Positions 18,928 through 41,907 of a DNA stretch of 64,000 nt are shown one piece after another. The stretch spans positions 1-64,000 of the forward strand of contig CAZDZV010000003.1 in the NCBI GenBank assembly GCA_964510025.1, written 5' to 3'. Each line of letters begins with the position of its first letter. Positions within the stretch are counted from its first letter, which is position 1. Below the pieces are notes generated by a model that was not told the DNA's origin, searched no databases, and saw only the letters and a program-made list of their open reading frames with translations. The stretch is from an uncultured Methanosarcinales archaeon (GTDB taxonomy: Archaea; Nanobdellota; Nanobdellia; Woesearchaeales; DATDXC01). The position numbers and the translations under genes were made by a program.

Positions 18928-19005
18928 GTGGTATGGATCTGCTATAGATATAAAAGATTTTTGTTAGTTAAGTTTATAAGTGATAGTTTATTTATCTACT
19001 ATAAA

Positions 19006-19488
19006 ATGACAAAAATACAATATATTCCTTATGGGGTCTGGAACACCAGGCGCAGCCGGGGGACAGGCATGGAGCGCAACGAGGTAGGGTCTGGATTGCT
19101 AATCATTTGTAAGGAGACAGATGAAGCTTTCTTAGTAAAACGTAGCTATGCCGGTCAATACTGGACCCTTCCAGGAGGCAAGATGAAGCGGACAGCAAGT
19201 GGAGACTGGGATGATCCGCTAGCCTCTGCTGTTAAACAAGGATTTGAAGAATTACGAGTGTTGCCTGTCGGACGGGTTAGGGCTGATCCATTTTATATAG
19301 AAGATAAAGCAAAGGGTAGATGTTATCATGTATTTGCTTTGGAGGTAAACGAACCAGAAAGAATGAACTATTCTCCGAGACCAAATTGGGAAATCGGCGG
19401 CCATAGGTGGTTCAGCTCAAGACAACTGGGGGCAAGAAGGGATATATATCCTGGCCTTAAACCAGTTATTATAGAAGCGTTGAAATAA
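19006..19488 (+). CDS. NUDIX-fold protein with a degenerate Nudix box
   Basis: GLLI..FLVKRS..WTLPGG...PLASAVKQGFEEL, NWE...RWF, YPGL; TTTATAA promoter at about 18973. Confidence 0.75.
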   Translation: MTKIQYIPYGVWNTRRSRGTGMERNEVGSGLLIICKETDEAFLVKRSYAGQYWTLPGGKMKRTASGDWDDPLASAVKQGFEELRVLPVGRVRADPFYIEDKAKGRCYHVFALEVNEPERMNYSPRPNWEIGGHRWFSSRQLGARRDIYPGLKPVIIEALK

Positions 19489-19489
19489 T

Positions 19490-20455
19490 CTATTTAGCAT
19501 GCGCACTTCCTCTTTCTAACCAATAGTTAATACCTGGTGAGCTTGTTTGTACAGACTCTGGTGTCTGGTTTGTAAGCTGTGCGATCCTCTGATATGCAGT
19601 CTGGACCATCGTATTGTCTGTCCTAAGGAGTTGTTTAACCAGGTCTATTAGTTCGGCCTCATCCACCGTCTCAGTAAAACATCGATTTCCTTCTCTTTCT
19701 GCCATATAAGCGCCGCTCATCGTATTCATAGCACACCTCTTTGCCCTTTCAACAATAGTAAGTCCTGCTGGAGTTATCTGAGTTACTTTCCAGGTCCCTC
19801 CCACAGCTCTGTTTTTTCTAGCATTCATATAAGCGTTTGACAGATAAAAAGTGCATGGAGCTAACTCTAAACCTGTAAAATCTCTTTTCAAAGAATCTAG
19901 ATATTCTTCTGCCAATTCTTTTCCATCACCCATTGCAATATAATGGTAGTCAGTTCCTATTCTCCGTATGCATCTTTCTTCCGGAACATAGAGAATAATC
20001 CCCCTTGTGAATTCCCCCATTTTTTTGTCAAAAAAAACATAAGTTAGAATAGGGTAATCCCCAGGGGATAGTTCACCAACTTGAGAATGCACCTGGCTGA
20101 AAGCCTCTTTAACACCCCTTTCTATGAAGTCATCCAACGAAGCTGAACCTGCTGTCTCATAGACAGGATGTGAAGTGAAATCTCGATTGTTGTCTGGATT
20201 AGAGTGAGTGAGGTCATTCAAGGCATCAATCCAGTTTAGCGCAAACAAAGGCTTTAAACCAGCTTCCATATACCTTGTAAGAGCCTTAGGTTGAGGACTT
20301 TCTACAAAAGCTAAACTGCCATGGAAGTCGGGTGCCCTATAATTGAAAAGTTTGTTGATTCTAGTAGCATCAGTCACTCTTTCCCGAAGTTCAATCCTTC
20401 GATCAACGCCGGCAATAGCTCCACCCCTATATACAGCTACAATATTAATAGACAT
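19490..20455 (-). CDS. divergent proteasome-beta-like Ntn-hydrolase-fold protein (Ser1)
   Basis: After Met removal S1, D17, R19 and K34 match proteasome beta T1/D17/R19/K33; YIAMGDG matches the GSG motif; AVGG...VTQITPAG matches SGG...V.VIT..G. Confidence 0.65.
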   Translation of the reverse strand: MSINIVAVYRGGAIAGVDRRIELRERVTDATRINKLFNYRAPDFHGSLAFVESPQPKALTRYMEAGLKPLFALNWIDALNDLTHSNPDNNRDFTSHPVYETAGSASLDDFIERGVKEAFSQVHSQVGELSPGDYPILTYVFFDKKMGEFTRGIILYVPEERCIRRIGTDYHYIAMGDGKELAEEYLDSLKRDFTGLELAPCTFYLSNAYMNARKNRAVGGTWKVTQITPAGLTIVERAKRCAMNTMSGAYMAEREGNRCFTETVDEAELIDLVKQLLRTDNTMVQTAYQRIAQLTNQTPESVQTSSPGINYWLERGSAHAK

Positions 20456-20506
20456 AACCCTCTAGAATTCTAATTATGTTTAAAAATGTTTCTATTAATC
20501 ACCACT

Positions 20507-21100
20507 TTATAGTGGCATATCTTTTATGACAGTATTCCCTTTGACCTGCACCACTATATCTTCGACACCTTGTCTGTGGCCAGCCCCAGCTGCCATCTTT
20601 AGCTCATGTACTGCCTCTGTAGCCCACCTATGGGCAACTGCCAGGGCGTTTAAATACGCTGCGTCAACTGGATGACCTTCATCCAACTGGGTAAAAACAT
20701 ACCTTAGTACTTCATCCTCTGAGGGTACATAGATCCTATTGCTTGTATCTGATGTCCTAACCATAGCGCCAGGAACAGAGGCAGCCAACTCTTGCAAAGC
20801 CTTGGTGCCTCGCTGACCGAACCTATTGGGGAAAGCCAGATCCGCTATATTAAAGTGTCCAGTTAAGTAGTGATGTTCCTCTCCAGCTGGTTCTAGCCTT
20901 CTAACTCCAGGATGTTGGCTTGGAAATTCAATAAGAATTGGGTATGATCCATGTTGGGCTGCTTTTAATACAGCTCTTTCTGCACAATAATCAGGGCTAA
21001 ATCCCACCATGATATCTCTTGGAGAGTATCTGCCGGTATTATCCACCTGTCCACAGACATATGCGCTATTGGAACCGTGGTATAATTGTATCCTAACCAC
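20507..21100 (-). CDS. hypothetical protein, ADP-ribosyltransferase-like
   Basis: N-terminal LYHGS, then VGFSPD..A..A, PILIEF and EEHHY, a spacing typical of HYE-type ART folds; GTG start. Confidence 0.5.
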   Translation of the reverse strand: MVRIQLYHGSNSAYVCGQVDNTGRYSPRDIMVGFSPDYCAERAVLKAAQHGSYPILIEFPSQHPGVRRLEPAGEEHHYLTGHFNIADLAFPNRFGQRGTKALQELAASVPGAMVRTSDTSNRIYVPSEDEVLRYVFTQLDEGHPVDAAYLNALAVAHRWATEAVHELKMAAGAGHRQGVEDIVVQVKGNTVIKDMPL

Positions 21101-31195: not shown

Positions 31196-34156
31196 ATGAA
31201 GATGGTTGTCTGGAAGAATAAATCAAATAATCAACTATGCGCAACGATCCCAAGTTCATCAGACATTAAGGAAGGAGATGTGGTTGAGATAGAAAAATCT
31301 TCGATCAGGAAAATTGCTTATAGCGGAGTTGTTGGTGACTTATTCCATTATGGGCATTTGCGATCGATACAGTATGCCAACTCTATATCTGATTACAATA
31401 TCTGCGGTGTCTTTACAGACAAAGCTGTTGAGGAATACAGGGTCAAGCCTATTGCCAACCTAAAAGAGAGGAAAGCTATCTATTCCGGACTTAAGTGTGT
31501 TGATAGGGTCATGGTGCAGCACAGCAGGGATCCTACTGATAACCTCAAAAGGATTCATGATGAATTCCCAGATGCAGAGATAATCTTGATACATGGCACA
31601 GATCTAAATTATGTTCACGGTTCTGAATATATCAAAAGCATAGGTGGGAGGATTGTGCAGCACCCTTACTATGGGAGGCTTTCGACATTCAAGATCATAA
31701 ATAAAATCATAGAAAACAGGGACAAATTCAAGGACCTGACTGATTTTGCATCACTGATACAGGGAAAGGCAAAAATTGACCCGGAGTATGAGCGGGGCAA
31801 CAAGACCATAATCTCAACAAAAGCAGAGACCCTTAAGGCTTTGAAGCCACTGCTGAAAAAATCTAGGATTGAAAATATACTGTCTTTCACAGTGTCAGAC
31901 TGGAAGAACAGGAAAGAGAAGATAATCAAGGGTATACAACAGAAATTCAGCGGCAAAATTATAGTAAGAAGCTCTGCAATCAATGAAGATAGCCTTGAGA
32001 CATCCATGGCAGGATGTTTTAAGAGCGTACTGGATGTAAATCCAGGTGATATGAAGCAAACTGAAAAAGCGATAAGAGAGGTTATCAATTCCTATAGAAG
32101 CCAGGTTTCAGAAAGTTCTTTCAACCAAGTTCTTGTGCAAGAACAAACTACAGATATTGCTATGAGTGGAGTAGCCTTTACAAGAACACTGGAAAGCAAC
32201 GCGCCTTATTACGTGATAAATTATGATGATTCAACAGGAAAGACAGACACTGTCACAAAGGGCATAGCAAACAAGACAATCAAGATATCCAGGTTTGCCA
32301 AGCAGATGCCTGAAAATATGAAAAAGATCCTGGAAGCAATAAAAGAAATCGAGGAAAAAATACCCAACATCGGGCTGGACATTGAGTTTGCCATAAATAA
32401 AAAAGGAGAGGTAATCATATTCCAGGCAAGACCCCTGGCTGGCAGCATACATGATGATGAAAAAGATGCTGAAATAGCAGGCAGAATCTCCTCGCTCAAG
32501 GCGAGGTTCCAGGAGCTTTCACGCAGAAAGAAGCATCTATGTGGAGATGAGAGCATTTTTGCTGATATGCCTGACTGGAATCCTGCTGAGATTATAGGAG
32601 ATAATCCAAACAGACTGGATTTTTCACTTTATGATTATATAATAACCGACAGCGCATGGCATAAAGCCAGATCATCGCAAGATTATTACAATGTTGATCC
32701 AGCGAAATTGGTTATACTTTTCGGAAACAAGCCATATATTGACGTAAGAAACAGTTTCAATTCCTTTACACCTAATTCAATTTCTCAGTTTCTCAGGGAA
32801 AAGCTGGTCTGCTTTTATTGCAACAAACTTAAGAAAAATCCTCAACTTCAGGATAAGGTCGAATTTGATATAGTATACAGCTGCTATGAGCTCGGTTTTG
32901 ATGAAAGAGCAAAAGAGTTGACGGAGGCAGGCTTTAGCAAACAGGATATCCACAAAATAAGGAACTCGCTGGTAGACCTAACAAACAACCTGGTCATGAA
33001 CTCAAAAGCCACCATAAGGAAAGACCTGGATTCACTTAAGGAAATGGAAGACAATCGAAAAAAAATATTCAACAAATACCCAGACGATGTTGTAGGGCTT
33101 CTCAACAATGCCAAATCGCTCCTTGATGACTGCAGAGACAAGGGCACAGTGCAATTTTCGCGGCTGGCTAGGCTAGCGTTCATTGGAAAAATATTGCTAC
33201 GGAGCCTCGTTAAGAAAGGGATTATCTCCAACCAAGCGTATGATGATTTCATGAATTCCATCAAAACAGTTGCTTCAGAGATAAATGAGCATTTCAGATT
33301 AATGACAGCAGGCGCCATGAGCAGAGAGGATTTCCTGAAAAGATACGCCCATCTGAGGCCAGGAACCTATGATATCACCAGCCAAAGGTATGATGCAAAT
33401 CCTGATCTTCTAAAGGCAATTAATTCAAAACATCTGGAGACAAAACAGATGCCTTTTGTTCTAGCTGGAGAAAAAAAGATAGATTCTATACTTAAGAAAG
33501 AGGGACTGAAATTCAATTCTTCTGAACTGTTTGAGTTTATAAGAGAAGCTCTGGAATCCAGGGAATACGCTAAATTCGAATTCACCAAAAATCTGAGCGA
33601 TGCCATCGAGCTTATAGCTTCAGCAGGAGAGAAGATGGGTTTTACAAGAAAGGAGCTTTCATTACTAGACATAGATGACCTGTTCTTTAGCAATATAACT
33701 AACAGAGATGAGCTCACCAGATATTGGCAGGGCCAGATAAACAAGAGAATGAAAGAGAGGGAAATAAACAACAGGCTGGTGCTGCCCCCAATTATCTTTT
33801 CAGATGAAGATTTTGACGTAATAAACTACTATCAGCCAAAACCAAATTATATCACACAAAAAAAGGTCAGAGCCGAGTTTGTCAGTCCAGAAGATATTTC
33901 ACGAATTGAAGGGAGGATAGTGCTGATAGAAAACGGTGATCCTGGATATGACTGGATATTTACAAGAAAGCCTGCAGGGCTGATAACTAAATACGGAGGG
34001 GTGGCTTCACATATGGCAATACGCTGCGCTGAGTTTGGGATACCGGCAGCTATCGGCTGCGGAGTACTGTTTGACCAACTTAAGAATTCAGATGGCGCTG
34101 TACTGGACTGCCACATGAAAAAAATAAATATGATAAAAGGTGATCTCAAGTGTTAG
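31196..34156 (+). CDS. fusion: AbrB-like domain + HxGH cytidylyltransferase + L-glutamine kinase (Cj1418-like, PEP-utilising/ATP-grasp)
   Basis: VWKNKSNNQLCATIP..DIKEGDVVEI; GDLFHYGH; TKAETL, IVRSSA..ED...SMAG, DIEFA, FQARP, MPDWNPAEIIG, HLRPGTYDI, DPGYDWIF; phospho-His motif GGVASHMAIRCAEFGIPAAIGCG. Confidence 0.88.
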   Translation: MKMVVWKNKSNNQLCATIPSSSDIKEGDVVEIEKSSIRKIAYSGVVGDLFHYGHLRSIQYANSISDYNICGVFTDKAVEEYRVKPIANLKERKAIYSGLKCVDRVMVQHSRDPTDNLKRIHDEFPDAEIILIHGTDLNYVHGSEYIKSIGGRIVQHPYYGRLSTFKIINKIIENRDKFKDLTDFASLIQGKAKIDPEYERGNKTIISTKAETLKALKPLLKKSRIENILSFTVSDWKNRKEKIIKGIQQKFSGKIIVRSSAINEDSLETSMAGCFKSVLDVNPGDMKQTEKAIREVINSYRSQVSESSFNQVLVQEQTTDIAMSGVAFTRTLESNAPYYVINYDDSTGKTDTVTKGIANKTIKISRFAKQMPENMKKILEAIKEIEEKIPNIGLDIEFAINKKGEVIIFQARPLAGSIHDDEKDAEIAGRISSLKARFQELSRRKKHLCGDESIFADMPDWNPAEIIGDNPNRLDFSLYDYIITDSAWHKARSSQDYYNVDPAKLVILFGNKPYIDVRNSFNSFTPNSISQFLREKLVCFYCNKLKKNPQLQDKVEFDIVYSCYELGFDERAKELTEAGFSKQDIHKIRNSLVDLTNNLVMNSKATIRKDLDSLKEMEDNRKKIFNKYPDDVVGLLNNAKSLLDDCRDKGTVQFSRLARLAFIGKILLRSLVKKGIISNQAYDDFMNSIKTVASEINEHFRLMTAGAMSREDFLKRYAHLRPGTYDITSQRYDANPDLLKAINSKHLETKQMPFVLAGEKKIDSILKKEGLKFNSSELFEFIREALESREYAKFEFTKNLSDAIELIASAGEKMGFTRKELSLLDIDDLFFSNITNRDELTRYWQGQINKRMKEREINNRLVLPPIIFSDEDFDVINYYQPKPNYITQKKVRAEFVSPEDISRIEGRIVLIENGDPGYDWIFTRKPAGLITKYGGVASHMAIRCAEFGIPAAIGCGVLFDQLKNSDGAVLDCHMKKINMIKGDLKC

Positions 34157-34806
34157 CAGCTATAAGCCAGAGAAATGATGTAAACAAGCATGGAGCCTCC
34201 TATGATAATCTAGAGGTAAATTATGTCAATTATTTTGAAAAATTTGGGATAAAGAGCATCCTAATTCCCAACTGTACAGATGATGTAGCAGGCTATATCA
34301 ATAAGCTACCCATCAGGGCAGTCATACTTACCGGCGGGAATGATATCGATCCAAGCCTGTTTGGAGCCAAATCCATGACAGGTCTTTCTGTTTCCAGGCA
34401 AAGAGATAAGACAGAGAGAGAATTATTACAAATAGCAACTAAAAAGAGAATTCCGGTTCTAGGCATATGCAGGGGCATGCAGTTTATGAACATTTTCTTT
34501 GGCGGCAAATTACGATTTGTCAAGGGGCATGTTGTGGAGAAACATAGTGTGGGCCTGACTGAGCCCGCATTAGAAGGAAAGATAAGCGTGAATTCTTATC
34601 ATAAATTAGGCATAACCTATGATGATCTGTGCAGAGATTTTAGAGCATTTGCTCAGTCTGATGACGGCATAATTGAAGGCATCTGTCATAAATCTTTACC
34701 CATAGCCGGCCTGCAATGGCATCCCGAAAGAAAATGCCCTAACAATGCAGTCAATGATAGGATAATGAAAGCCTTTGTTCAAAATAAGCTGTTCTGGAAA
34801 AAATGA
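34150..34806 (+). CDS. class I glutamine amidotransferase-like hydrolase (Cj1417-like gamma-glutamyl-CDP-amidate hydrolase)
   Basis: LTGGND, RD..E, GICRGMQ (catalytic Cys), VNSYH, QWHPE; overlaps the kinase stop. Confidence 0.88.
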   Translation: MLAAISQRNDVNKHGASYDNLEVNYVNYFEKFGIKSILIPNCTDDVAGYINKLPIRAVILTGGNDIDPSLFGAKSMTGLSVSRQRDKTERELLQIATKKRIPVLGICRGMQFMNIFFGGKLRFVKGHVVEKHSVGLTEPALEGKISVNSYHKLGITYDDLCRDFRAFAQSDDGIIEGICHKSLPIAGLQWHPERKCPNNAVNDRIMKAFVQNKLFWKK

Positions 34807-35597
34807 AGGCAATCATCTTAGCTGCGGGTATGGGGACAAGGCTGGGCAAATATACAAAAGACCTCCCAAAATGCATGCTTGAATTTGCCGGAAAGAGCCT
34901 TTTACAGCACCAGGTGGATGCACTAAAGGCTGCAGGTATCAATGATATAATCATTGTAAGGGGCTACAAGGCAGATAAAATTCAGATTCCTGGTGCAAGA
35001 TATTATTTGAATGAGCGATATGCAACCACAAATATGGTGGAAACGCTCTTTAAAGCAGAGCCTGAGATGGATGATGAAATCCTGGTCTGCTATGCTGATA
35101 TTATATATGAAGAAAAGGTTATAAAGAGGATATTGGCATCAGAAGCAGATATCGGGGTTGTAGTGGATATAGATTACTGGGATTACTGGAATAGGAGGCT
35201 TGATAATCCAGAAGAAGACACTGAAAGCCTTCTGGTTAGAGGGGGCAGGATCGTTGAACTAGGGGATACAAAATGCACTATGGATAAGGCTAAGGCCAGG
35301 TATGTCGGACTCATTAAATTTTCAAAAAAAGGAGTGGCAGCCTTAAAGCAGGTCTATCACTACAATAAGAAAAAATATTTTGATAGTGATGAGACCTGGC
35401 AAAGATCAAAATCATTCAAAAAAGCATATATGACATGTATGCTTCAAGCATTGATTGATGCAGGATATAAGGTGGAGCCTATCGAGATCAGCCACGGATG
35501 GCTTGAATTCGATACTGTTAAAGACTATGAGCTTTATGAGAAATGGCTGAAGGAGGGCACTCTGCATCAGTTCTTCTTAGTGAATAAATTTAAATAA
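34803..35597 (+). CDS. LicC/Cj1416-like cytidylyltransferase (putative CTP:phosphoglutamine cytidylyltransferase)
   Basis: MKAIILAAGMGTRL..YT.DLPKC, GY, N..Y.TTNM..TL, YADI, W.EFDT..DY. Confidence 0.87.
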   Translation: MKAIILAAGMGTRLGKYTKDLPKCMLEFAGKSLLQHQVDALKAAGINDIIIVRGYKADKIQIPGARYYLNERYATTNMVETLFKAEPEMDDEILVCYADIIYEEKVIKRILASEADIGVVVDIDYWDYWNRRLDNPEEDTESLLVRGGRIVELGDTKCTMDKAKARYVGLIKFSKKGVAALKQVYHYNKKKYFDSDETWQRSKSFKKAYMTCMLQALIDAGYKVEPIEISHGWLEFDTVKDYELYEKWLKEGTLHQFFLVNKFK

Positions 35598-35612
35598 CCC
35601 GCAATAAACCGA

Positions 35613-36512
35613 ATGATAATGATAGAGAATCTTGCTGTTATGATCTTCGGAAAGGATAACTATTATGGTCTGAATATCATTAACTCTCTAATTAAGAACA
35701 ATATGCCACCAAGAGCAATTCTTGTAGAAAAAAGGGTGCCCCTTAAAAAGAGAGCATTACATAATTATGTTCAGCTTTTTAGAAAAAAAGGACTGAAGGC
35801 GTGCATAAGGAGACTATTCAGGAGAGTCAGTGATATTCTGGTTATGCTGGGATTTCAAGAGAGCTGGGAATCCTACAATACATATAAGAAGGCTGAAAAG
35901 GATTTGAAAAATTTTAACCATGGTCTAAAATTTGAGGATTTTGATTTTAAGAAATACGGCATAGAGATAATATACTGCGGCAACAATTCTCAAGAAGCAA
36001 TAGACTATATAAATAAAAACAATATCGAAATAGTCATCGGAGCACCCAAAATAGTCTCAGGAAGAACTCTTGAGCTGTCAAAGGCTAAATTTGTCAATTC
36101 TCATCCAGGTTATCTCCCTTTTTTTCGGGGGAAAAATTCTGAAATATGGAGCGCTTACTACTTTATGAATCCGGGCGCAACCCTGCATTTTATGGATGCA
36201 GGTGTCGATACAGGGCCTATAATCGACAGAACATTCTATCCTTTTAAGGAATATGATAGTTGGGGGACCATCAGGCTGAAAGGAAAAGACAGATGCATAG
36301 ATTTGTACCTGAAACATATAAATAGCCTGTGCAAGGGGCAAATCAGGTGGGAAGATACTGCCAAACAGGATCGAGCTGTCGGAAAGATGACATCAGGCAT
36401 CAATATAAGAGAATATATCATTGCACGACAAAATCTTAAATCGATAAAAAGGATAATAAGAAAGCGGAGAGCATTAGGGATCAGGAATCCAGGAATGCTT
36501 ACGCCCAATTAA
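35613..36512 (+). CDS. N10-formyl-THF-dependent formyltransferase
   Basis: NSHPGYLPFFRG and GATLHFMDAGVDTGPI. Confidence 0.85.
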   Translation: MIMIENLAVMIFGKDNYYGLNIINSLIKNNMPPRAILVEKRVPLKKRALHNYVQLFRKKGLKACIRRLFRRVSDILVMLGFQESWESYNTYKKAEKDLKNFNHGLKFEDFDFKKYGIEIIYCGNNSQEAIDYINKNNIEIVIGAPKIVSGRTLELSKAKFVNSHPGYLPFFRGKNSEIWSAYYFMNPGATLHFMDAGVDTGPIIDRTFYPFKEYDSWGTIRLKGKDRCIDLYLKHINSLCKGQIRWEDTAKQDRAVGKMTSGINIREYIIARQNLKSIKRIIRKRRALGIRNPGMLTPN

Positions 36513-36513
36513 G

Positions 36514-37434
36514 CTATTTCTGCGCCAAAAAAATCACACAATTGCTTATTTTATGGATGCCAGGAAGCTTTTTCCTATCATCCATTTTCTGAAGGTAGAT
36601 ATCCAGCTTTTTGGCCATTTTGGGTGCCAGAGTTTTTATGGTTAGTGATAGGTAACCAGCGCCGCCTGATCTTACTATCTTCAATCCGCTTTTTTCGATC
36701 AACCTTTTCAATCTTGAAAAAGAATATGCATTCTTTTTCACTAAGCCCCGTTTCTTGTGTGCACTTAGTTTTTGGTATTTTCTTTTCATGGTCTTTGAAA
36801 AAACAGCTCCAATCTTGGTTACAGCCAACCCCATATAAATAAACCATGTATCCTGCCATCTTAATTCATATCTGCTGTTTGTCAAAATATATACCAGATT
36901 TCTAGGCCACTTCTGCGGGGCATCCAGGCTGCTTATGCCATACATATTTCTTTGAGATATAATGAAATAACCGCCAGGCCTGAGTACCCTTTTCACTTCT
37001 TTAAGGCATCTCATGGGATATTGCAGGTAGTGAAGGAATCCCAATCCAATAACACAATCAAAACTATTATCCTGAAAATCTAGCTTTTCTGCATTACCTA
37101 TCAAGAACCGGAATTTAGCCTTGTTCGATCTTTTTTTAACTCTTTTACAGTTTTGTACTGCTAATCCATGCAGGTCTTCGGATATGTCAATTCCTGTTAT
37201 GTTGAAGCCCCTTCTATAGATCTTCGCAGAAGTAACTCCAGCACCGTAGCCAAGCTCCAGTATCTTGGATCCCTTGCCTAAGTTTAGATCATCAAGGTAT
37301 TCTAAGGCTTTTTGCTCCCTTTCCTGCAACCTGATTCCCAGAAATGTGTCTTCTTTGTAGTAGTCAGCCCACCTTTTATAGTTCTTATCCTGATTCCATT
37401 TCTTTTTGACCTGATTAAGTTGATCGTATTTCAT
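36514..37434 (-). CDS. class I SAM-dependent methyltransferase
   Basis: ILELGYGAG, GIDIS, GNAEKL.F.DNSFD, RVLRPGG. Confidence 0.92.
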   Translation of the reverse strand: MKYDQLNQVKKKWNQDKNYKRWADYYKEDTFLGIRLQEREQKALEYLDDLNLGKGSKILELGYGAGVTSAKIYRRGFNITGIDISEDLHGLAVQNCKRVKKRSNKAKFRFLIGNAEKLDFQDNSFDCVIGLGFLHYLQYPMRCLKEVKRVLRPGGYFIISQRNMYGISSLDAPQKWPRNLVYILTNSRYELRWQDTWFIYMGLAVTKIGAVFSKTMKRKYQKLSAHKKRGLVKKNAYSFSRLKRLIEKSGLKIVRSGGAGYLSLTIKTLAPKMAKKLDIYLQKMDDRKKLPGIHKISNCVIFLAQK

Positions 37435-38366
37435 TCTGGCTTTTTTAAAAGAAAGACTATTGCATTGCCAAATTTATAAATTCCTGGGATGCTCCTTTGG
37501 TCATTGGCTTTCTGCAGCTTTCTGTCTAATTTTCCTGCTAATTTTCTTGACAATTTAGCAAGGCTTTTGGAGTAGAATCCTGCACCATCAAACCGTAATA
37601 TCTTAAAGCCGGCTTTTTTCGATAGCCTGCTGAGATCTTGAAAAGAGAATGCCCTTTTCTTAATAGGATTCTCCCTAAGCATAATAAGCCTTTTTCTGTA
37701 TCTTTTTATAGGTTTTGAAAAAGGGGATAGGGCTGACGTAATCCAAATTGCAGGATGCAGCAAAAAGGTACCTGTCCAGCTAAGTTCATATTCAGATCCA
37801 ATGAAAAGAAAAATAAGGGCGCGAACAATCTTCAAAGGACTGTCAATGCAGCCAACTCCATATTTCTTGTTGTTCTGGGTCAAGATGAAATAGCCGCCCG
37901 GCTTCAAGACCCTCTTGGCTTCTTTCATGCATGCAAGGGGATCCTGAAGATAATGCAGAACCCCAAGCTCCAAAACGCAATCGAAACTATTGTCCTTAAT
38001 ATCCAGGTTTTCCACATTTCCAACCTTGAAGTGAAATTTTGCGTCTGTCTTTATGTTTTTGCAGTTTTTTGTTGCCAAATTCTTGAATTCTTGTGAGATA
38101 TCTATGCCTGTTATATCAAGGCCCCTTCTCAGCACTTCCATCGCCGTAGTACCTGCACCATAACCCAGTTCCAGAACCTTAGCATGCCTTTTGAGGTTCA
38201 GGCTATCCAAGAATTTCAGGACTCTCGATTCCCTTATACGGAACCTGATGCCCTGATAATCATAATAGACTTCGCAACCTTTTTTGTAGTACTCTAATGT
38301 TCTTTTGACTTCCTCAGGACTATTCCACTTATTCTTCACATATTTAAGATGAATATCCTGATTCAT
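37431..38366 (-). CDS. class I SAM-dependent methyltransferase, paralog of the neighbour
   Basis: VLELGYGAG, GIDIS, DNSFDCV, RVLKPGG; aligns over its full length with 36514..37434. Confidence 0.92.
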   Translation of the reverse strand: MNQDIHLKYVKNKWNSPEEVKRTLEYYKKGCEVYYDYQGIRFRIRESRVLKFLDSLNLKRHAKVLELGYGAGTTAMEVLRRGLDITGIDISQEFKNLATKNCKNIKTDAKFHFKVGNVENLDIKDNSFDCVLELGVLHYLQDPLACMKEAKRVLKPGGYFILTQNNKKYGVGCIDSPLKIVRALIFLFIGSEYELSWTGTFLLHPAIWITSALSPFSKPIKRYRKRLIMLRENPIKKRAFSFQDLSRLSKKAGFKILRFDGAGFYSKSLAKLSRKLAGKLDRKLQKANDQRSIPGIYKFGNAIVFLLKKPE

Positions 38367-38445
38367 TGTTGATAGTTTTCAATCTTGCTTTAAAAGTTTT
38401 TCGTTCAGAGTTAACTTTATAAATGGGCGCTTATTATTTGGGGTC

Positions 38446-38943
38446 ATGGGGAAATTAATCTGGATTACAGGTCTGGCAGGTTCCGGAAAAACCACCATCG
38501 CCAGAAAGCTCTATTCAAAATTAAAGGAAAAAATGCAATGCGTAGTCCATTTTGACGGAGACGATGTGAGGCATATTCTAGGAGACGTCTATGGCCACAA
38601 CATAAAGGACAGGATAACTACAGCGTATATCTACTCCAGGCTATGCAGTTTTCTGACAAGCCAGGGAATAACAGTTATCATGAGCACTATCTCATTGTTT
38701 CATGAGATTCAGGATTATAATTCAAAAAATAATGAAGAATATTATGAAATATTGCTGGATGTTTCTAAAGATGAGCTGTTAAGGAGAAATCAGAAGAAGC
38801 TGTATACACATGTCAGGAAAAATGTGATGGGTATGGACCTGAAACCTGAATTTCCCAAAGAGCCTGCTCTGATTCTGCCAAACAACAACATAAATGAGCT
38901 GGAAGAAAATATAAAAAGGATAACTGAACTGATCCTAAAATGA
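38446..38943 (+). CDS. APS-kinase-like kinase (Cj1415-like cytidine diphosphoramidate 3'-kinase)
   Basis: WITGLAGSGKTTIA, DGDDVR, STISLF, RRNQK.LY, NVMGMD. Confidence 0.85.
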   Translation: MGKLIWITGLAGSGKTTIARKLYSKLKEKMQCVVHFDGDDVRHILGDVYGHNIKDRITTAYIYSRLCSFLTSQGITVIMSTISLFHEIQDYNSKNNEEYYEILLDVSKDELLRRNQKKLYTHVRKNVMGMDLKPEFPKEPALILPNNNINELEENIKRITELILK

Positions 38944-39761
38944 TCCCCAAAATCAGATCTGTCTTTTATGCGATCCGCCTCTACGGACTCAGAAGCTTCC
39001 TATACAACGCTGTCTCTATTCTCACAAGCGATTTTATCGTGGTGTCATTCCAGAAAAGCGGGAAGACCAAGTTAAGAGTGATGATAGCAAAAGCACTATC
39101 TCTGAAGTATAACATCAAGAATATAAAGCTGGATCTGCAGCAGATGACCTGGTTCAGGCCAATACCTAACATCCTGATTTCACATGGAGGAAGCACCAAA
39201 GACAACAATAGGCTGAATATAGGTGAAATCTTCAAGAATAAGAAGATAATATATCTTGTCAGAGATCCAAGAGATATCGTGGTCTCTTTGTTTCATGGTT
39301 CAAGGACAAGGGATAAGGTCTACAGCGGAAATGATATCTCAAAATTCATAAGGGACCCTAACTGCGGTTTTTCCAAAATACTGGAATTCTTGAATGACCG
39401 GGCGAGTGAGATGAAAACAAGAAAAAAACCTCACATACTTGTTAAATTTGAAAACCTCAAGAAAGACCCTGGAAAAGAGCTAAAGAGGGTTCTTGATTTT
39501 GTCGGAATATCTGTTTCCGAAGATATCATACACAAGGCTGTAGAATACGGCTCCTTCAGTCACATGAGAAAGATGGAGATGAACGAAGAGATAAAGGACT
39601 ATAGGATGCTGCCTGGAGATAAAAAGGACCCAAATTCATACCGAACAAGAAAGGGAAAAGTGGGCAGTCATAGAGAAGAGCTGAATCCGGAAGATATCGC
39701 TTATGTAAATAATGAGATGAAGAATAAGCTAGACCCGCTATTTGGATATAAGCCAGATTAA
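38940..39761 (+). CDS. sulfotransferase-fold protein
   Basis: 5'-PSB loop SFQKSGKT, 3'-phosphate motif YLVRDPRDIVVS, KFENL, RKGKVG; ATGA-coupled to the kinase. Confidence 0.88.
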   Translation: MIPKIRSVFYAIRLYGLRSFLYNAVSILTSDFIVVSFQKSGKTKLRVMIAKALSLKYNIKNIKLDLQQMTWFRPIPNILISHGGSTKDNNRLNIGEIFKNKKIIYLVRDPRDIVVSLFHGSRTRDKVYSGNDISKFIRDPNCGFSKILEFLNDRASEMKTRKKPHILVKFENLKKDPGKELKRVLDFVGISVSEDIIHKAVEYGSFSHMRKMEMNEEIKDYRMLPGDKKDPNSYRTRKGKVGSHREELNPEDIAYVNNEMKNKLDPLFGYKPD

Positions 39762-41203
39762 GATTTCAGGAATTTTCTAGGACTTAGCGATGAAAAGGCA
39801 ATTTCCAAATCTTCTTTGGTTATTTCTTTGATTACTATAAGAACAAACAGATATACCAAGACAAGCAGAATAAAGTATCCGATAAACATGATTCCGGAGC
39901 TATATAAAAATCTGGATAGGATGTATATTATTGCTGTAGCAAGCGTAATTCTCGCAAGCGATACAGGGCTGATGAGGGTTTTAAATCTGGTCAGTACATA
40001 AACAGAAGCAAGAAGGAAACCAAAGATAGCAGCGGCCAAAGTAGCGATCGCTGCCCCCCTAAGAGCCAGCAGCGGAACTAGAATAATATTCAGGATTAAA
40101 CATACTGCCAATGACAGCGATGCAAAAATAAACGTCAACATAGGCTTATTTGCGCCTGCAACAAATGAACATAATATCATGAATATAGAAAAAAATGTGA
40201 ATGCAAACACCAGTATGCTCATCACAGGAGCAGCTTTCATAAATTCAGATGAGTAGAGCAGATTCATTATCTGGGTGGAATAGCTGCTTATAAGAACTGT
40301 AACCGGAAATAAAATTAGAACAGTGTACCTTAGGGCCTGGTTGATATATTTTTTTGTGAGCTTATAGTCCCTTTTTGCCACAGATGCAGAGATTGATGGC
40401 AGCATAGTCATAGGAAGTGCTGTAAATACAGATAGTGTTATCCTTGAAAGGGTGTTTGCTGCTGTATAATACCCGGTCAATATGTCCTGCTGCAAGATCC
40501 TTTTAACTGCCAACAAACCCAGGTCATTTGTGGTTATAGTCACAGCATAGAAAAGCGTCAGGGGAAGGGCAAATTTCAGCAAAGTGAGCTTATTGAATTT
40601 ATGATCACTTTTTTTTATTTTAGTGAATCTTAATACAACCATACATGCTATCAAAGGAGCTAATATGTATGCTGCTATAGCTCCAAAAAGACCAAAACCA
40701 AGGTAGACCAACAGGAAAGCAAATATAACCTTAAAGATGGAATGAACTGTCTCAGAAATCGCCTGGTTTTTGAACTGTCTTATGCCATTGAGATAACCTT
40801 TTGAGTAAATACCATAAATGCCTAAAGGAAGTACAATAAATGCAGACAACCTTATAAGTCCTGCAAGCGATGGATCCCTGAACAGATGCGCTATGTTCTC
40901 TGAAAAAAACAGATAAATGGACAGACAGATTCCTATCAAAATAAGCTGCAATTCCGCACCTGCTTTTAGGACTGCATCTGCCCTTGTCCTGTTTTCAGAT
41001 ATGAATTTAGTTACAGCTCTTGGAACTCCTGTTAAAAAAAAGGTTTTTGTGATCAATACCAATGACAGAATGAATCCCAGATCCCCATAAATCTCCACAC
41101 CCAGCATGCGGGCAAGACCTATATGGATCAAATACCCAGAAAGCATTATGGTCAGCTGGGCTACCATAAGGTAGACTGTGCCTCTTGCCACTACATTCTT
41201 CAT
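39758..41203 (-). CDS. oligosaccharide flippase (Wzx/MOP family)
   Basis: About 14 TMs; LARMLG.E.YG, G.Y.AA, LN.IL.P...L.GAAIAT. Confidence 0.9.
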   Translation of the reverse strand: MKNVVARGTVYLMVAQLTIMLSGYLIHIGLARMLGVEIYGDLGFILSLVLITKTFFLTGVPRAVTKFISENRTRADAVLKAGAELQLILIGICLSIYLFFSENIAHLFRDPSLAGLIRLSAFIVLPLGIYGIYSKGYLNGIRQFKNQAISETVHSIFKVIFAFLLVYLGFGLFGAIAAYILAPLIACMVVLRFTKIKKSDHKFNKLTLLKFALPLTLFYAVTITTNDLGLLAVKRILQQDILTGYYTAANTLSRITLSVFTALPMTMLPSISASVAKRDYKLTKKYINQALRYTVLILFPVTVLISSYSTQIMNLLYSSEFMKAAPVMSILVFAFTFFSIFMILCSFVAGANKPMLTFIFASLSLAVCLILNIILVPLLALRGAAIATLAAAIFGFLLASVYVLTRFKTLISPVSLARITLATAIIYILSRFLYSSGIMFIGYFILLVLVYLFVLIVIKEITKEDLEIAFSSLSPRKFLKS

Positions 41204-41907
41204 TCTAACCTATGGTTCCAGACTAGCTGTCCAACCGCTTTCCTGGACAATTCCAGGACAAAAAAGGCTGTATAAACCATCAGGGTATATTCAGAAAAGC
41301 CCAACAATACGCCCAGAAACATCAGGTTGAACGGATACTCCAGCCTAAACAGTTCAAAAATAAAATAGAGAAAATCATTTTGGCTCTTGAGCTCTGAACC
41401 TTTTAAGGATTTTTCTATTCTTAGCCTTTGCTTATCAGGGTACCAAAGCGGATTCAGTGTGATTGCCTTATTCAGCAGAAAGGCAACAGCACTAACAATA
41501 CCAAGCATTATAAATAATAAATTACCGGTGGAATTATAAAGGCCAAGGCCGAAACAAACCAGAAGAAACGGATCAGCTACATAATGGCCGAGCCTATCCA
41601 AATAGACACCATTCAGGGAGAACTGGTTCTTATATCTGGCAACAATTCCATCAGCGCAGTCAATGATGAACATCGACTGGAACACCAAAAGTGCAACAAG
41701 GGTTATGATATAGTCTCCGGCAAGCAGAAAAAAGGCAGAGACTATCTGCACAAGGATCCAGAGCACAGTAATCTGATTTGGCGTAAGGTTAATATAAAGG
41801 AATAATCTAGCAGGATAGTATGCAAGATAGTCAACAACAGGATAAATCAGGCCTCTTCTCTTGCTTTTTGTCCTTTTCCTTAATTGCCCTATGGTCGGTA
41901 TTTTCAT
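41200..41907 (-). CDS. CDP-alcohol phosphotransferase family protein
   Basis: TPNQIT and DCADGIVARYKNQFSLNGVYLD signature. Confidence 0.9.
   Translation of the reverse strand: MKIPTIGQLRKRTKSKRRGLIYPVVDYLAYYPARLFLYINLTPNQITVLWILVQIVSAFFLLAGDYIITLVALLVFQSMFIIDCADGIVARYKNQFSLNGVYLDRLGHYVADPFLLVCFGLGLYNSTGNLLFIMLGIVSAVAFLLNKAITLNPLWYPDKQRLRIEKSLKGSELKSQNDFLYFIFELFRLEYPFNLMFLGVLLGFSEYTLMVYTAFFVLELSRKAVGQLVWNHRLE

Follow-up and report, generated by a model that had tools for sequence, protein, structure and literature searches.

A putative phosphoramidate donor pathway with a candidate sulfotransferase-fold transferase in the glycan region of an uncultured Woesearchaeales archaeon

In the present study, a 64,000-nucleotide stretch of DNA from an uncultured archaeon of the Woesearchaeales (contig C3, GenBank CAZDZV010000003.1, positions 1-64000; hereafter the window) was analyzed for a locus at 31,196 to 39,761 that might make a phosphorus-nitrogen (P-N) bonded donor for a surface glycan. 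The genome, G000, is 1.70 Mb in size and 98% complete, and the named close homologues of the window proteins belong to Woesearchaeota and other Nanoarchaeota, which places the host among the DPANN archaea. The locus opens with three plus-strand genes, the trio, encoding a glutamine-kinase-family fusion of 986 residues (31196..34156; NF004508/PRK05849, PF01467/PF01326/PF00391), a class I glutamine amidotransferase-like protein of 218 residues, likely a hydrolase of gamma-glutamyl-cytidine diphosphoramidate (gamma-glutamyl-CDP-amidate; 34150..34806; PF07722/PF00117), and a LicC-type cytidylyltransferase of 264 residues, likely acting on CTP and phosphoglutamine (34803..35597; PF12804, PDB 1jyk). 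These genes overlap by 7 bases (kinase/hydrolase) and 4 bases (hydrolase/cytidylyltransferase), so that coordinates and families bear out the overlap of glutamine-kinase-like, class I amidotransferase-like and LicC-like genes that had been proposed for this locus from the sequence. Further on, a 79-base divergent intergenic region (38367..38445), with a TATA-like box about 22 bases ahead of each start as read by eye, precedes two more plus-strand genes. The first encodes a kinase of the adenosine 5'-phosphosulfate (APS) kinase fold, likely a cytidine diphosphoramidate 3'-kinase (38446..38943; NF004041 and its clade in a tree), and the second a cytosolic-sulfotransferase-fold protein of 273 residues, a candidate phosphoramidyl transferase (38940..39761; PF00685 and a structural model). 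These two genes form a separate divergent unit, in which the kinase stop overlaps the transferase start (ATGA). The original prediction had two paralogous methyltransferases and an APS-kinase-like gene following the trio, beside a flippase and glycosyltransferases; all are present, but the methyltransferases lie on the minus strand and the kinase in its own divergent unit, and the locus consists of three transcription units. The predicted gene list also stood, although it had left unnamed the sulfotransferase-fold gene within the locus, an HxGH domain on the 986-residue protein and a CDP-alcohol phosphotransferase gene 1.4 kb outside.

The 986-residue protein scored 856 bits against NF004508/PRK05849 over residues 202-980 (cut-off 501) and 17-61 bits on other family models. 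We take PRK05849 to be the family of Cj1418, the L-glutamine kinase of Campylobacter jejuni, and 4 of the 120 best homologues carry the JGI label 'glutamine kinase'. Membership in the phosphoenolpyruvate (PEP) synthase, pyruvate phosphate dikinase (PPDK) or rifampin phosphotransferase families, named beforehand as grounds for giving up the proposal, was rejected, since the respective scores are 46.7 (cut-off 740), 29.5 (456) and 17.5 bits (999); the family scores favor PRK05849. An N-terminal piece of about 35 residues, missing in about half of the relatives, is followed by an HxGH cytidylyltransferase domain (residues ~38-171; best PDB match 5x3d) and then by the ATP-grasp, central and His-swivel domains. 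H51, G53, H54 and S938-H939-M940 are conserved in 97-100% of 104 fused homologues, His939 being invariant, and the key positions of the swivel motif SHMAIR with His939, of VRSS 257-260 and of QARP 410-413 are conserved in 95-100% of the 104 rows. The additional cytidylyltransferase domain may have a part in channeling phosphoglutamine or in the activation of a second small phosphate. In the hydrolase, a Cys motif (GICRG) and a His-Pro-Glu motif are found. The third protein has LicC (1jyk) as best PDB match (E 1.5e-14) and is 50-68% identical to its partners in 11 related loci and 42% in a partial twelfth; the NCBIfam output offers no model specific to Cj1416-type cytidylyltransferases, and its fold and linkage make it likely a CTP:phosphoglutamine cytidylyltransferase, the substrate being deduced from linkage.

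The PRK05849 cut-off was passed by 15 of 401 genomes of the phylum, G000 included. In 12 of the 14 others the same trio is adjacent, which argues against chance, and the remaining two are represented by one 2.5-kb contig and one C-terminal part only. The trios of relatives lie nearly always among glycan genes, and the trio is common in this lineage; bacterial plasmids hold it at 30-36% identity (14 records, of which 8 regions were viewed). Several variations on this arrangement were seen. Between hydrolase and cytidylyltransferase, 7 of the 12 related trio loci carry, mostly antisense, members of two families without Pfam match that show histidine-phosphatase-like motifs by eye (L041:8805-9674, L036:7457-8320, L034:6470-7456, L037:11878-12864, L032:11248-12054, L038:12474-14286 and L035:12061-13116); these families were not found in G000. 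Five of the 12 (L031, L032, L033, L038 and L042) have, within or next to the locus, genes of the HIT family, whose members hydrolyze nucleoside phosphoramidates. Genome G241 encodes an 1186-residue protein (L181:2814-6374) with the same N-terminal cytidylyltransferase but with the His-swivel before the ATP-grasp, adjoining LicC-like, hydrolase, sulfotransferase and cysQ-cysD-cysN-cysC genes, and this protein appears to be a permuted or different kinase within the same module. Proteins P0316 and P0325 have an APS-kinase-like domain fused ahead of the cytidylyltransferase-glutamine kinase, 30-38% identical to true CysC rows and with neither clade's motif. An unannotated 9.5-kb record filed as phage, which may be bacterial DNA (L089, MT837632.1), fuses the glutamine kinase to the hydrolase in 1011 residues, and in sulfation genes adjoining the trio a pyruvate-kinase-barrel domain is fused to ATP sulfurylase (L037:683-2947 and L041:10630-12876).

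For the kinase of the divergent unit, the best model is NF004041 (PRK05541), at 172 bits with a cut-off of 127, presumably the family of Cj1415, the cytidine diphosphoramidate kinase. This cut-off alone is too loose as a marker, since 11 of the 401 genomes pass it, most of them with true CysC. The window kinase, however, stays below the CysC cut-offs (84 versus 139 bits on TIGR00455; 64 versus 163 on PRK03846). In a 51-row tree, it belongs to a group of 15 rows that includes six cassette kinases (100/99), and all 15 rows labelled CysC form a branch of their own (100/99). Its motifs are unlike those of all 14 true CysC rows, with STISL for ISP and a 'NIRR' stretch without the Asn, and it is 37-44% identical to the kinases of bacterial trio cassettes and 30% to the CysC of G000 on contig C26. 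Among the matches listed, 7 of 120 homologues bear the JGI label 'cytidine diphosphoramidate kinase'. The notion that G000 lacks ATP sulfurylase proved wrong: no Sat-type gene was found in this genome, but cysD-cysN-cysC lie together on C26, and that CysC scores 285 bits on PRK03846; the window kinase is therefore not needed to make 3'-phosphoadenosine 5'-phosphosulfate (PAPS). On family scores, tree, motifs and the separate genomic cysC, a true APS kinase was rejected, and the sequence evidence all favors a diphosphoramidate kinase, which is the likely assignment.

A profile scan with the kinase alignment alone retrieved 79 metagenomic loci, and the following counts refer to the 27 of at least 8 kb, several of them near-duplicates (52 shorter ones were left out). 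A glutamine kinase is present in 25, a particular 250-residue methyltransferase in 19, a sulfotransferase-fold gene in 14 (9 by Pfam and 5 by a custom profile built from the Pfam-verified ones), a CysQ-like phosphatase in 7 and an ATP sulfurylase in none. In a glutamine-kinase tree (FastTree, support 100), the window protein falls among archaeal fusion proteins from genomes without the 3'-kinase clade, and stands apart from the stand-alone kinases that accompany the nearest relatives of the window 3'-kinase. This clade was found in none of 15 other genomes tested (the 14 over the PRK05849 cut-off and G241), 5 of which gave only true CysC (88-103 bits) and 10 no match at E 1e-12, versus 270 bits for the window kinase. 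The 60 nearest relatives gave matches of at most 116 bits, 240 genomes of a sister order gave none at E 1e-35 in a search that had no positive control, and a scan of named genomes with poorly conserved peptides returned one irrelevant locus. In view of the glutamine-kinase tree and of the 15 trio- or kinase-bearing relatives in which the clade was not found, the 3'-kinase looks like a separate import that arrived without its usual methyltransferase neighbor, and the locus looks like a mosaic that took this gene from another cassette lineage.

The predicted model of the sulfotransferase-fold protein (pLDDT 94) has SULT1 enzymes as its best Foldseek matches, and the protein keeps Lys39, Arg108, Ser116 and RKG 237-239, which belong to the 5'-phosphosulfate-binding (PSB) Lys, RxxxDxxxS and RKG motifs. 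Lys44, however, aligns with the Trp of the SULT PSB loop (Trp53 of SULT1A1), so that the adenine-stacking residue of PAPS sulfotransferases is lacking. Trp is found at this position in 88 of the 89 homologue rows that have a residue there (94 rows, some near-identical, with five gaps and one Gly). After dereplication, 5 changes were counted at 47 conserved columns, within the range of 0-11 in 31 relatives; Trp154Arg is unique to the window copy, and Tyr170Phe also occurs in two relatives. An assembly error behind Trp44Lys is not supported, since the contigs of runs X1 and X2, both possibly the source of the window, are identical to it letter for letter over the kinase-sulfotransferase stretch. 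A joint skipping 35704-38371 in one contig of run X3 was disregarded, as it had only 21 letters on one side. Orthologues at 37-61% identity occur in nine other genomes, and viral contigs gave only distant sulfotransferases (at most 31%). Three more sulfotransferase-family genes of G000 (C6:40624-41145, C2:97830-98294 and C9:26408-26917) could use PAPS from cysDNC. Uncharacterized sulfotransferases of Woesearchaeota and the sulfotransferase motifs are described in the available text of PMC11625862.

The CDP-alcohol phosphotransferase (41200..41907, minus strand; PF01066) is a second candidate transferase and the only protein of its kind found in G000. His replaces the last Asp of its motif, as it does in 7 of 8 trio-linked copies. 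Of 13 related archaeal trio loci, 7 have such a gene and one more a TagF-like gene; CDP-alcohol transferase genes also occur in glycan loci without the trio. The absence of a Cj1421/Cj1422-like gene had been noted beforehand, and for DUF2972 (PF11186) no match was seen in G000, in a search that gave none in the control genomes either, or among the 30 locus proteins by Pfam; two other candidates for the transfer are nevertheless present.

Between the trio and the divergent unit lie a formyltransferase-like gene (35613..36512, plus strand; PF00551, E 7.5e-9), probably for sugar N-formylation, and two class I S-adenosylmethionine-dependent methyltransferase genes on the minus strand (36514..37434 and 37431..38366; both PF08241), which converge on the trio with the formyltransferase-like gene standing between. 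These paralogues are 46% identical to each other. The methyltransferases METHYLTRANSFERASES share 22-24% identity, across some 100 residues, with the cassette family of about 250 residues that lies beside such kinases, a family that can be called 'Cj1419-like' from position and size only; no member of it, and nothing closer than the window pair, was found in G000. Methylation, and with it the O-methyl phosphoramidate (MeOPN) of Campylobacter, is therefore unsupported here: the proposed equivalence of the pair to Cj1419 and Cj1420 is not supported, and the supposed near-complete MeOPN system appears instead as a pathway variant without support for a methylated end product. The available text of a 2025 report (PMC11800397) assigns no function to Cj1419 or Cj1420. 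Among the 401 genomes, only G127 has a close homologue of the first paralogue, adjoining the sulfotransferase orthologue there; this copy (L041:13410-14270) contains one in-frame TGA.

Beyond the sulfotransferase-fold gene follow, on the minus strand, a Wzx/AglR-type flippase (39758..41203; PF01943), the CDP-alcohol phosphotransferase and a GT2 gene. The locus opens a glycan region that extends over about 60 kb and encodes two flippases together with sugar-nucleotide enzymes and many glycosyltransferases; aglB closes this region at the far end, on the same contig but outside the window (C3:87332-90754). The AglB protein (STT3, 1140 residues; L245:9333-12755, minus strand) ends in a prolyl isomerase domain of the FKBP type (PF00254, E 8e-20). 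Elsewhere in the window, at 18928-21100, a NUDIX gene and two open reading frames (321 and 197 residues) without Pfam match have an amino-acid style unlike that of their neighbors and possibly represent a small foreign insert.

Herein, we propose that the locus makes CDP-amidate, that this is 3'-phosphorylated, and that the phosphoramidate is handed to a sugar of the AglB-type surface glycan. The order of reactions follows the chemistry of C. jejuni as given in the accessible text of PMC11800397 and PMC6429109. The 986-residue protein, in which family and motif are observed, would phosphorylate the amide of glutamine via His939; the LicC-type enzyme, to judge from its fold, would add CMP to give CDP-glutamine; the amidohydrolase would release glutamate to leave CDP-amidate; the APS-kinase-like enzyme, from its clade, would add a 3'-phosphate; and a candidate transferase would move the phosphoramidate group to the glycan. 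We consider it highly probable that the locus makes a nucleoside diphosphoramidate, and the 3'-kinase step is held with good confidence. The statement as a whole is favored with somewhat less assurance, and the transferred phosphoramidate is probably unmethylated. Family scores and the kinase clade are best read as pointing to a P-N donor destined for a surface glycan, as originally predicted; the role in virus evasion suggested along with it is conjectural. With regard to the transfer, the 3'-phospho donor resembles PAPS in being a 3'-phospho-nucleoside with a transferable anion on its 5'-phosphate, so that a sulfotransferase fold could use it. Because of this layout and of the gene coupling to the kinase, the sulfotransferase-fold protein is narrowly ranked first as the transferase, a tentative choice that we hold at well below even chances. 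About as likely, and equally tentative, is a transfer from the unphosphorylated donor by the CDP-alcohol phosphotransferase; direct use of CDP-amidate by this enzyme would explain the absence of a 3'-kinase from most archaeal trios. A bolder proposal, which we regard as doubtful, is that a PAPS sulfotransferase has switched donors here: a 3'-kinase was inserted upstream, the Trp was lost, and the amidophosphoryl group would now be moved from 3'-phospho-CDP-amidate to the archaeal N-glycan.

Several observations weigh against this interpretation. The best NCBIfam family of the hydrolase, NF045546 (gamma-glutamyl-CDP-amidate hydrolase), leads the next by 45 bits, but the score of 104.9 bits is far from the cut-off of 250. 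The 10 further trio hydrolases that were tested stay below it as well (75-168 bits), so the cut-off looks narrow; we do not claim membership in the family, only a likely Cj1417-like action. The homologue searches returned no Campylobacter protein, and orthology to the Campylobacter set is suggested by gene order together with NCBIfam models and the automatic labels of JGI. Four of the nine sulfotransferase orthologues adjoin ATP sulfurylase and CysC, the window protein shares only 16-24% identity with the sulfotransferase-folds that neighbor other 3'-kinases, and some of those keep the Trp, so that loss of this residue is not required for a cytosine donor. In SULTs, the PSB-loop Trp stacks on the adenine of PAPS, and its loss in SULT4A1 accompanies lost binding of 3'-phosphoadenosine 5'-phosphate, according to the available text of PMC1847840; by analogy, the window protein may be dead, and the altered pocket fits a donor switch and a loss of function alike. 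The two flippases of the region mean that the acceptor need not be the N-glycan. Finally, MeOPN was not seen in 4 of 13 Campylobacter strains that carry orthologues of cj1416-1418, as stated in the accessible part of PMC3907429.

The loss of the Trp, together with the association of sulfotransferase orthologues with PAPS genes, leads to the main alternative, which we rate as possible but distinctly the weaker account, namely that two separate modifications are encoded. The trio would then feed the CDP-alcohol phosphotransferase with unphosphorylated CDP-amidate, the sulfotransferase would use PAPS from cysDNC or be decaying, and the 3'-kinase would be stranded or serve an unrecognized transferase. 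The frequency of CDP-alcohol transferases in archaeal trio loci (7 of 13, plus the TagF-like one) in genomes that tested without the 3'-kinase clade, the His shared by 7 of 8 trio-linked copies and the radical nature of Trp44Lys and Trp154Arg are all in keeping with this account. However, the reading frame of the kinase is undamaged, with a stop that runs into the start of the sulfotransferase, the 5 changes in 47 columns lie within the range of the relatives and both phosphate-binding motifs are kept, and CDP-alcohol transferases are not confined to loci with the trio. A full O-methyl phosphoramidate, made by one of the adjacent methyltransferases as an analogue and not an orthologue of the Campylobacter enzyme, is improbable. 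The pair lies between trio and kinase, shares a divergent promoter region with the kinase and has its only close homologue likewise in a trio locus (G127), but both members are outside the family of 19 of the 27 kinase loci, 11 of the 12 other genomes with the trio lack them, and several other sugar methyltransferases are present in the region. Moreover, unmethylated phosphoramidate is known in Xanthomonas and Shewanella lipopolysaccharide (available text of PMC3907429).

Sulfate could also be the group transferred. If the kinase were a cassette-type xenologue now acting on APS, it would give PAPS to the sulfotransferase in place of the cysC found at similar loci, and this sulfotransferase family does lie with true CysC and ATP sulfurylase in G127, G111, G241 and G208. 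We regard this as unlikely, and slightly more so than O-methylation, given that a true CysC is already encoded with cysD and cysN, that the kinase is without CysC motifs and that its nearest relatives lie in cassettes without ATP sulfurylase. Less credible still is a sulfo-phosphoramidate glycan, in which the sulfotransferase would N-sulfate the phosphoramidate to P-NH-SO3, a linkage like that of the sulfodiaminophosphinyl group in phaseolotoxin. The available text of a review (PMC11278893) describes the pairing of a PPDK-like N-P enzyme, PhtL, with the sulfotransferase-like PhtA in that pathway, and of 13 related archaeal trio loci, 5 contain ATP sulfurylase genes. On the other hand, trio and sulfation may co-occur merely as marks of glycan-rich loci, the sulfotransferase family is found without the trio too, and the window copy has lost the adenine-stacking Trp. 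A phosphoramidate decoration, probably unmethylated, thus remains the interpretation that we prefer.

The nearest known system is the MeOPN donor pathway of C. jejuni (Cj1418, Cj1417, Cj1416 and Cj1415), as far as described in the accessible text of PMC11800397, PMC3907429 and PMC6429109. Both have the four enzyme folds in a glycan locus, with kinase, hydrolase and cytidylyltransferase overlapping in one unit and a cassette-clade 3'-kinase nearby. In contrast to C. jejuni, the window region is of the archaeal AglB type and not a Kps capsule region, an HxGH cytidylyltransferase is fused to the kinase, and the 3'-kinase lies in a separate divergent unit. The window also has no DUF2972 match, in the search without positive control mentioned above, and the methyltransferases are of another family; genes of the sulfotransferase fold and for a CDP-alcohol transferase are present instead. 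In the available text of the C. jejuni papers, the transfer step is described through knockouts only, and the 3'-phospho compound is called the 'likely donor'. MeOPN genes are reported across Campylobacter (PMC3907429, accessible part), and TalE, a kinase resembling PPDK, has been shown to make an N-P bond with a different substrate (PMC6482885, accessible part). P-N glycans had been regarded as known from bacteria only, a view that needs a caveat: genes 308-311 of Cobalt Borg, an archaeal extrachromosomal element, form a structure-based Cj1418/1417/1416-like cluster in a glycoconjugate region (10.1101/2024.11.05.622173). Unlike the present locus, this cluster lies on an extrachromosomal element and is linked to a PEP-mutase fusion, and the available text of the preprint mentions no 3'-kinase or transferase. 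A literature search for an archaeal chromosomal pathway or a sulfotransferase-fold phosphoramidate transferase gave only this preprint, most subscription papers being outside its reach. The PAPS-dependent cytosolic-type sulfotransferases with CysC (PF00685, SULT1) share the fold (TM-score about 0.6), the catalytic Lys, the Arg and Ser for the 3'-phosphate, RKG and the coupling of kinase and transferase genes, and the window differs from them by the Lys for Trp and the non-CysC kinase. Fusions of the Fom1 type, a cytidylyltransferase with PEP mutase, likewise carry an HxGH domain N-terminally on the first pathway enzyme, and we take 5x3d to be the Fom1 domain; their partner is a P-C-forming mutase, whereas that of the window belongs to a P-N-forming kinase family. 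A fusion of this kind is present in G171 beside a sulfotransferase orthologue.

P-N sugar decorations have been documented for a few bacteria, and with a chromosomal pathway in the N-glycosylation region of an archaeon, this chemistry would reach archaeal cells as well. The phosphoramidate of Campylobacter is a phage receptor. In addition, P-N decorations of Campylobacter affect serum resistance, as reported in the accessible part of PMC3907429. What appears particular to the present locus is the coupling of a seemingly imported 3'-kinase to a sulfotransferase with a changed cofactor pocket, of which an unchanged close orthologue exists. The locus offers a small soluble transferase candidate (273 residues, with a confident model), and the G127 orthologue, which is 61% identical, keeps the Trp and has PAPS genes alongside, provides a near-isogenic control for a change from sulfate to phosphoramidate. 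If the donor switch is true, the protein would act as a phosphoramidyl transferase of the sulfotransferase fold, with close orthologues, at 61% identity, that remain sulfotransferases, and its product would be the first glycan with a P-N decoration to come from an archaeal cell.

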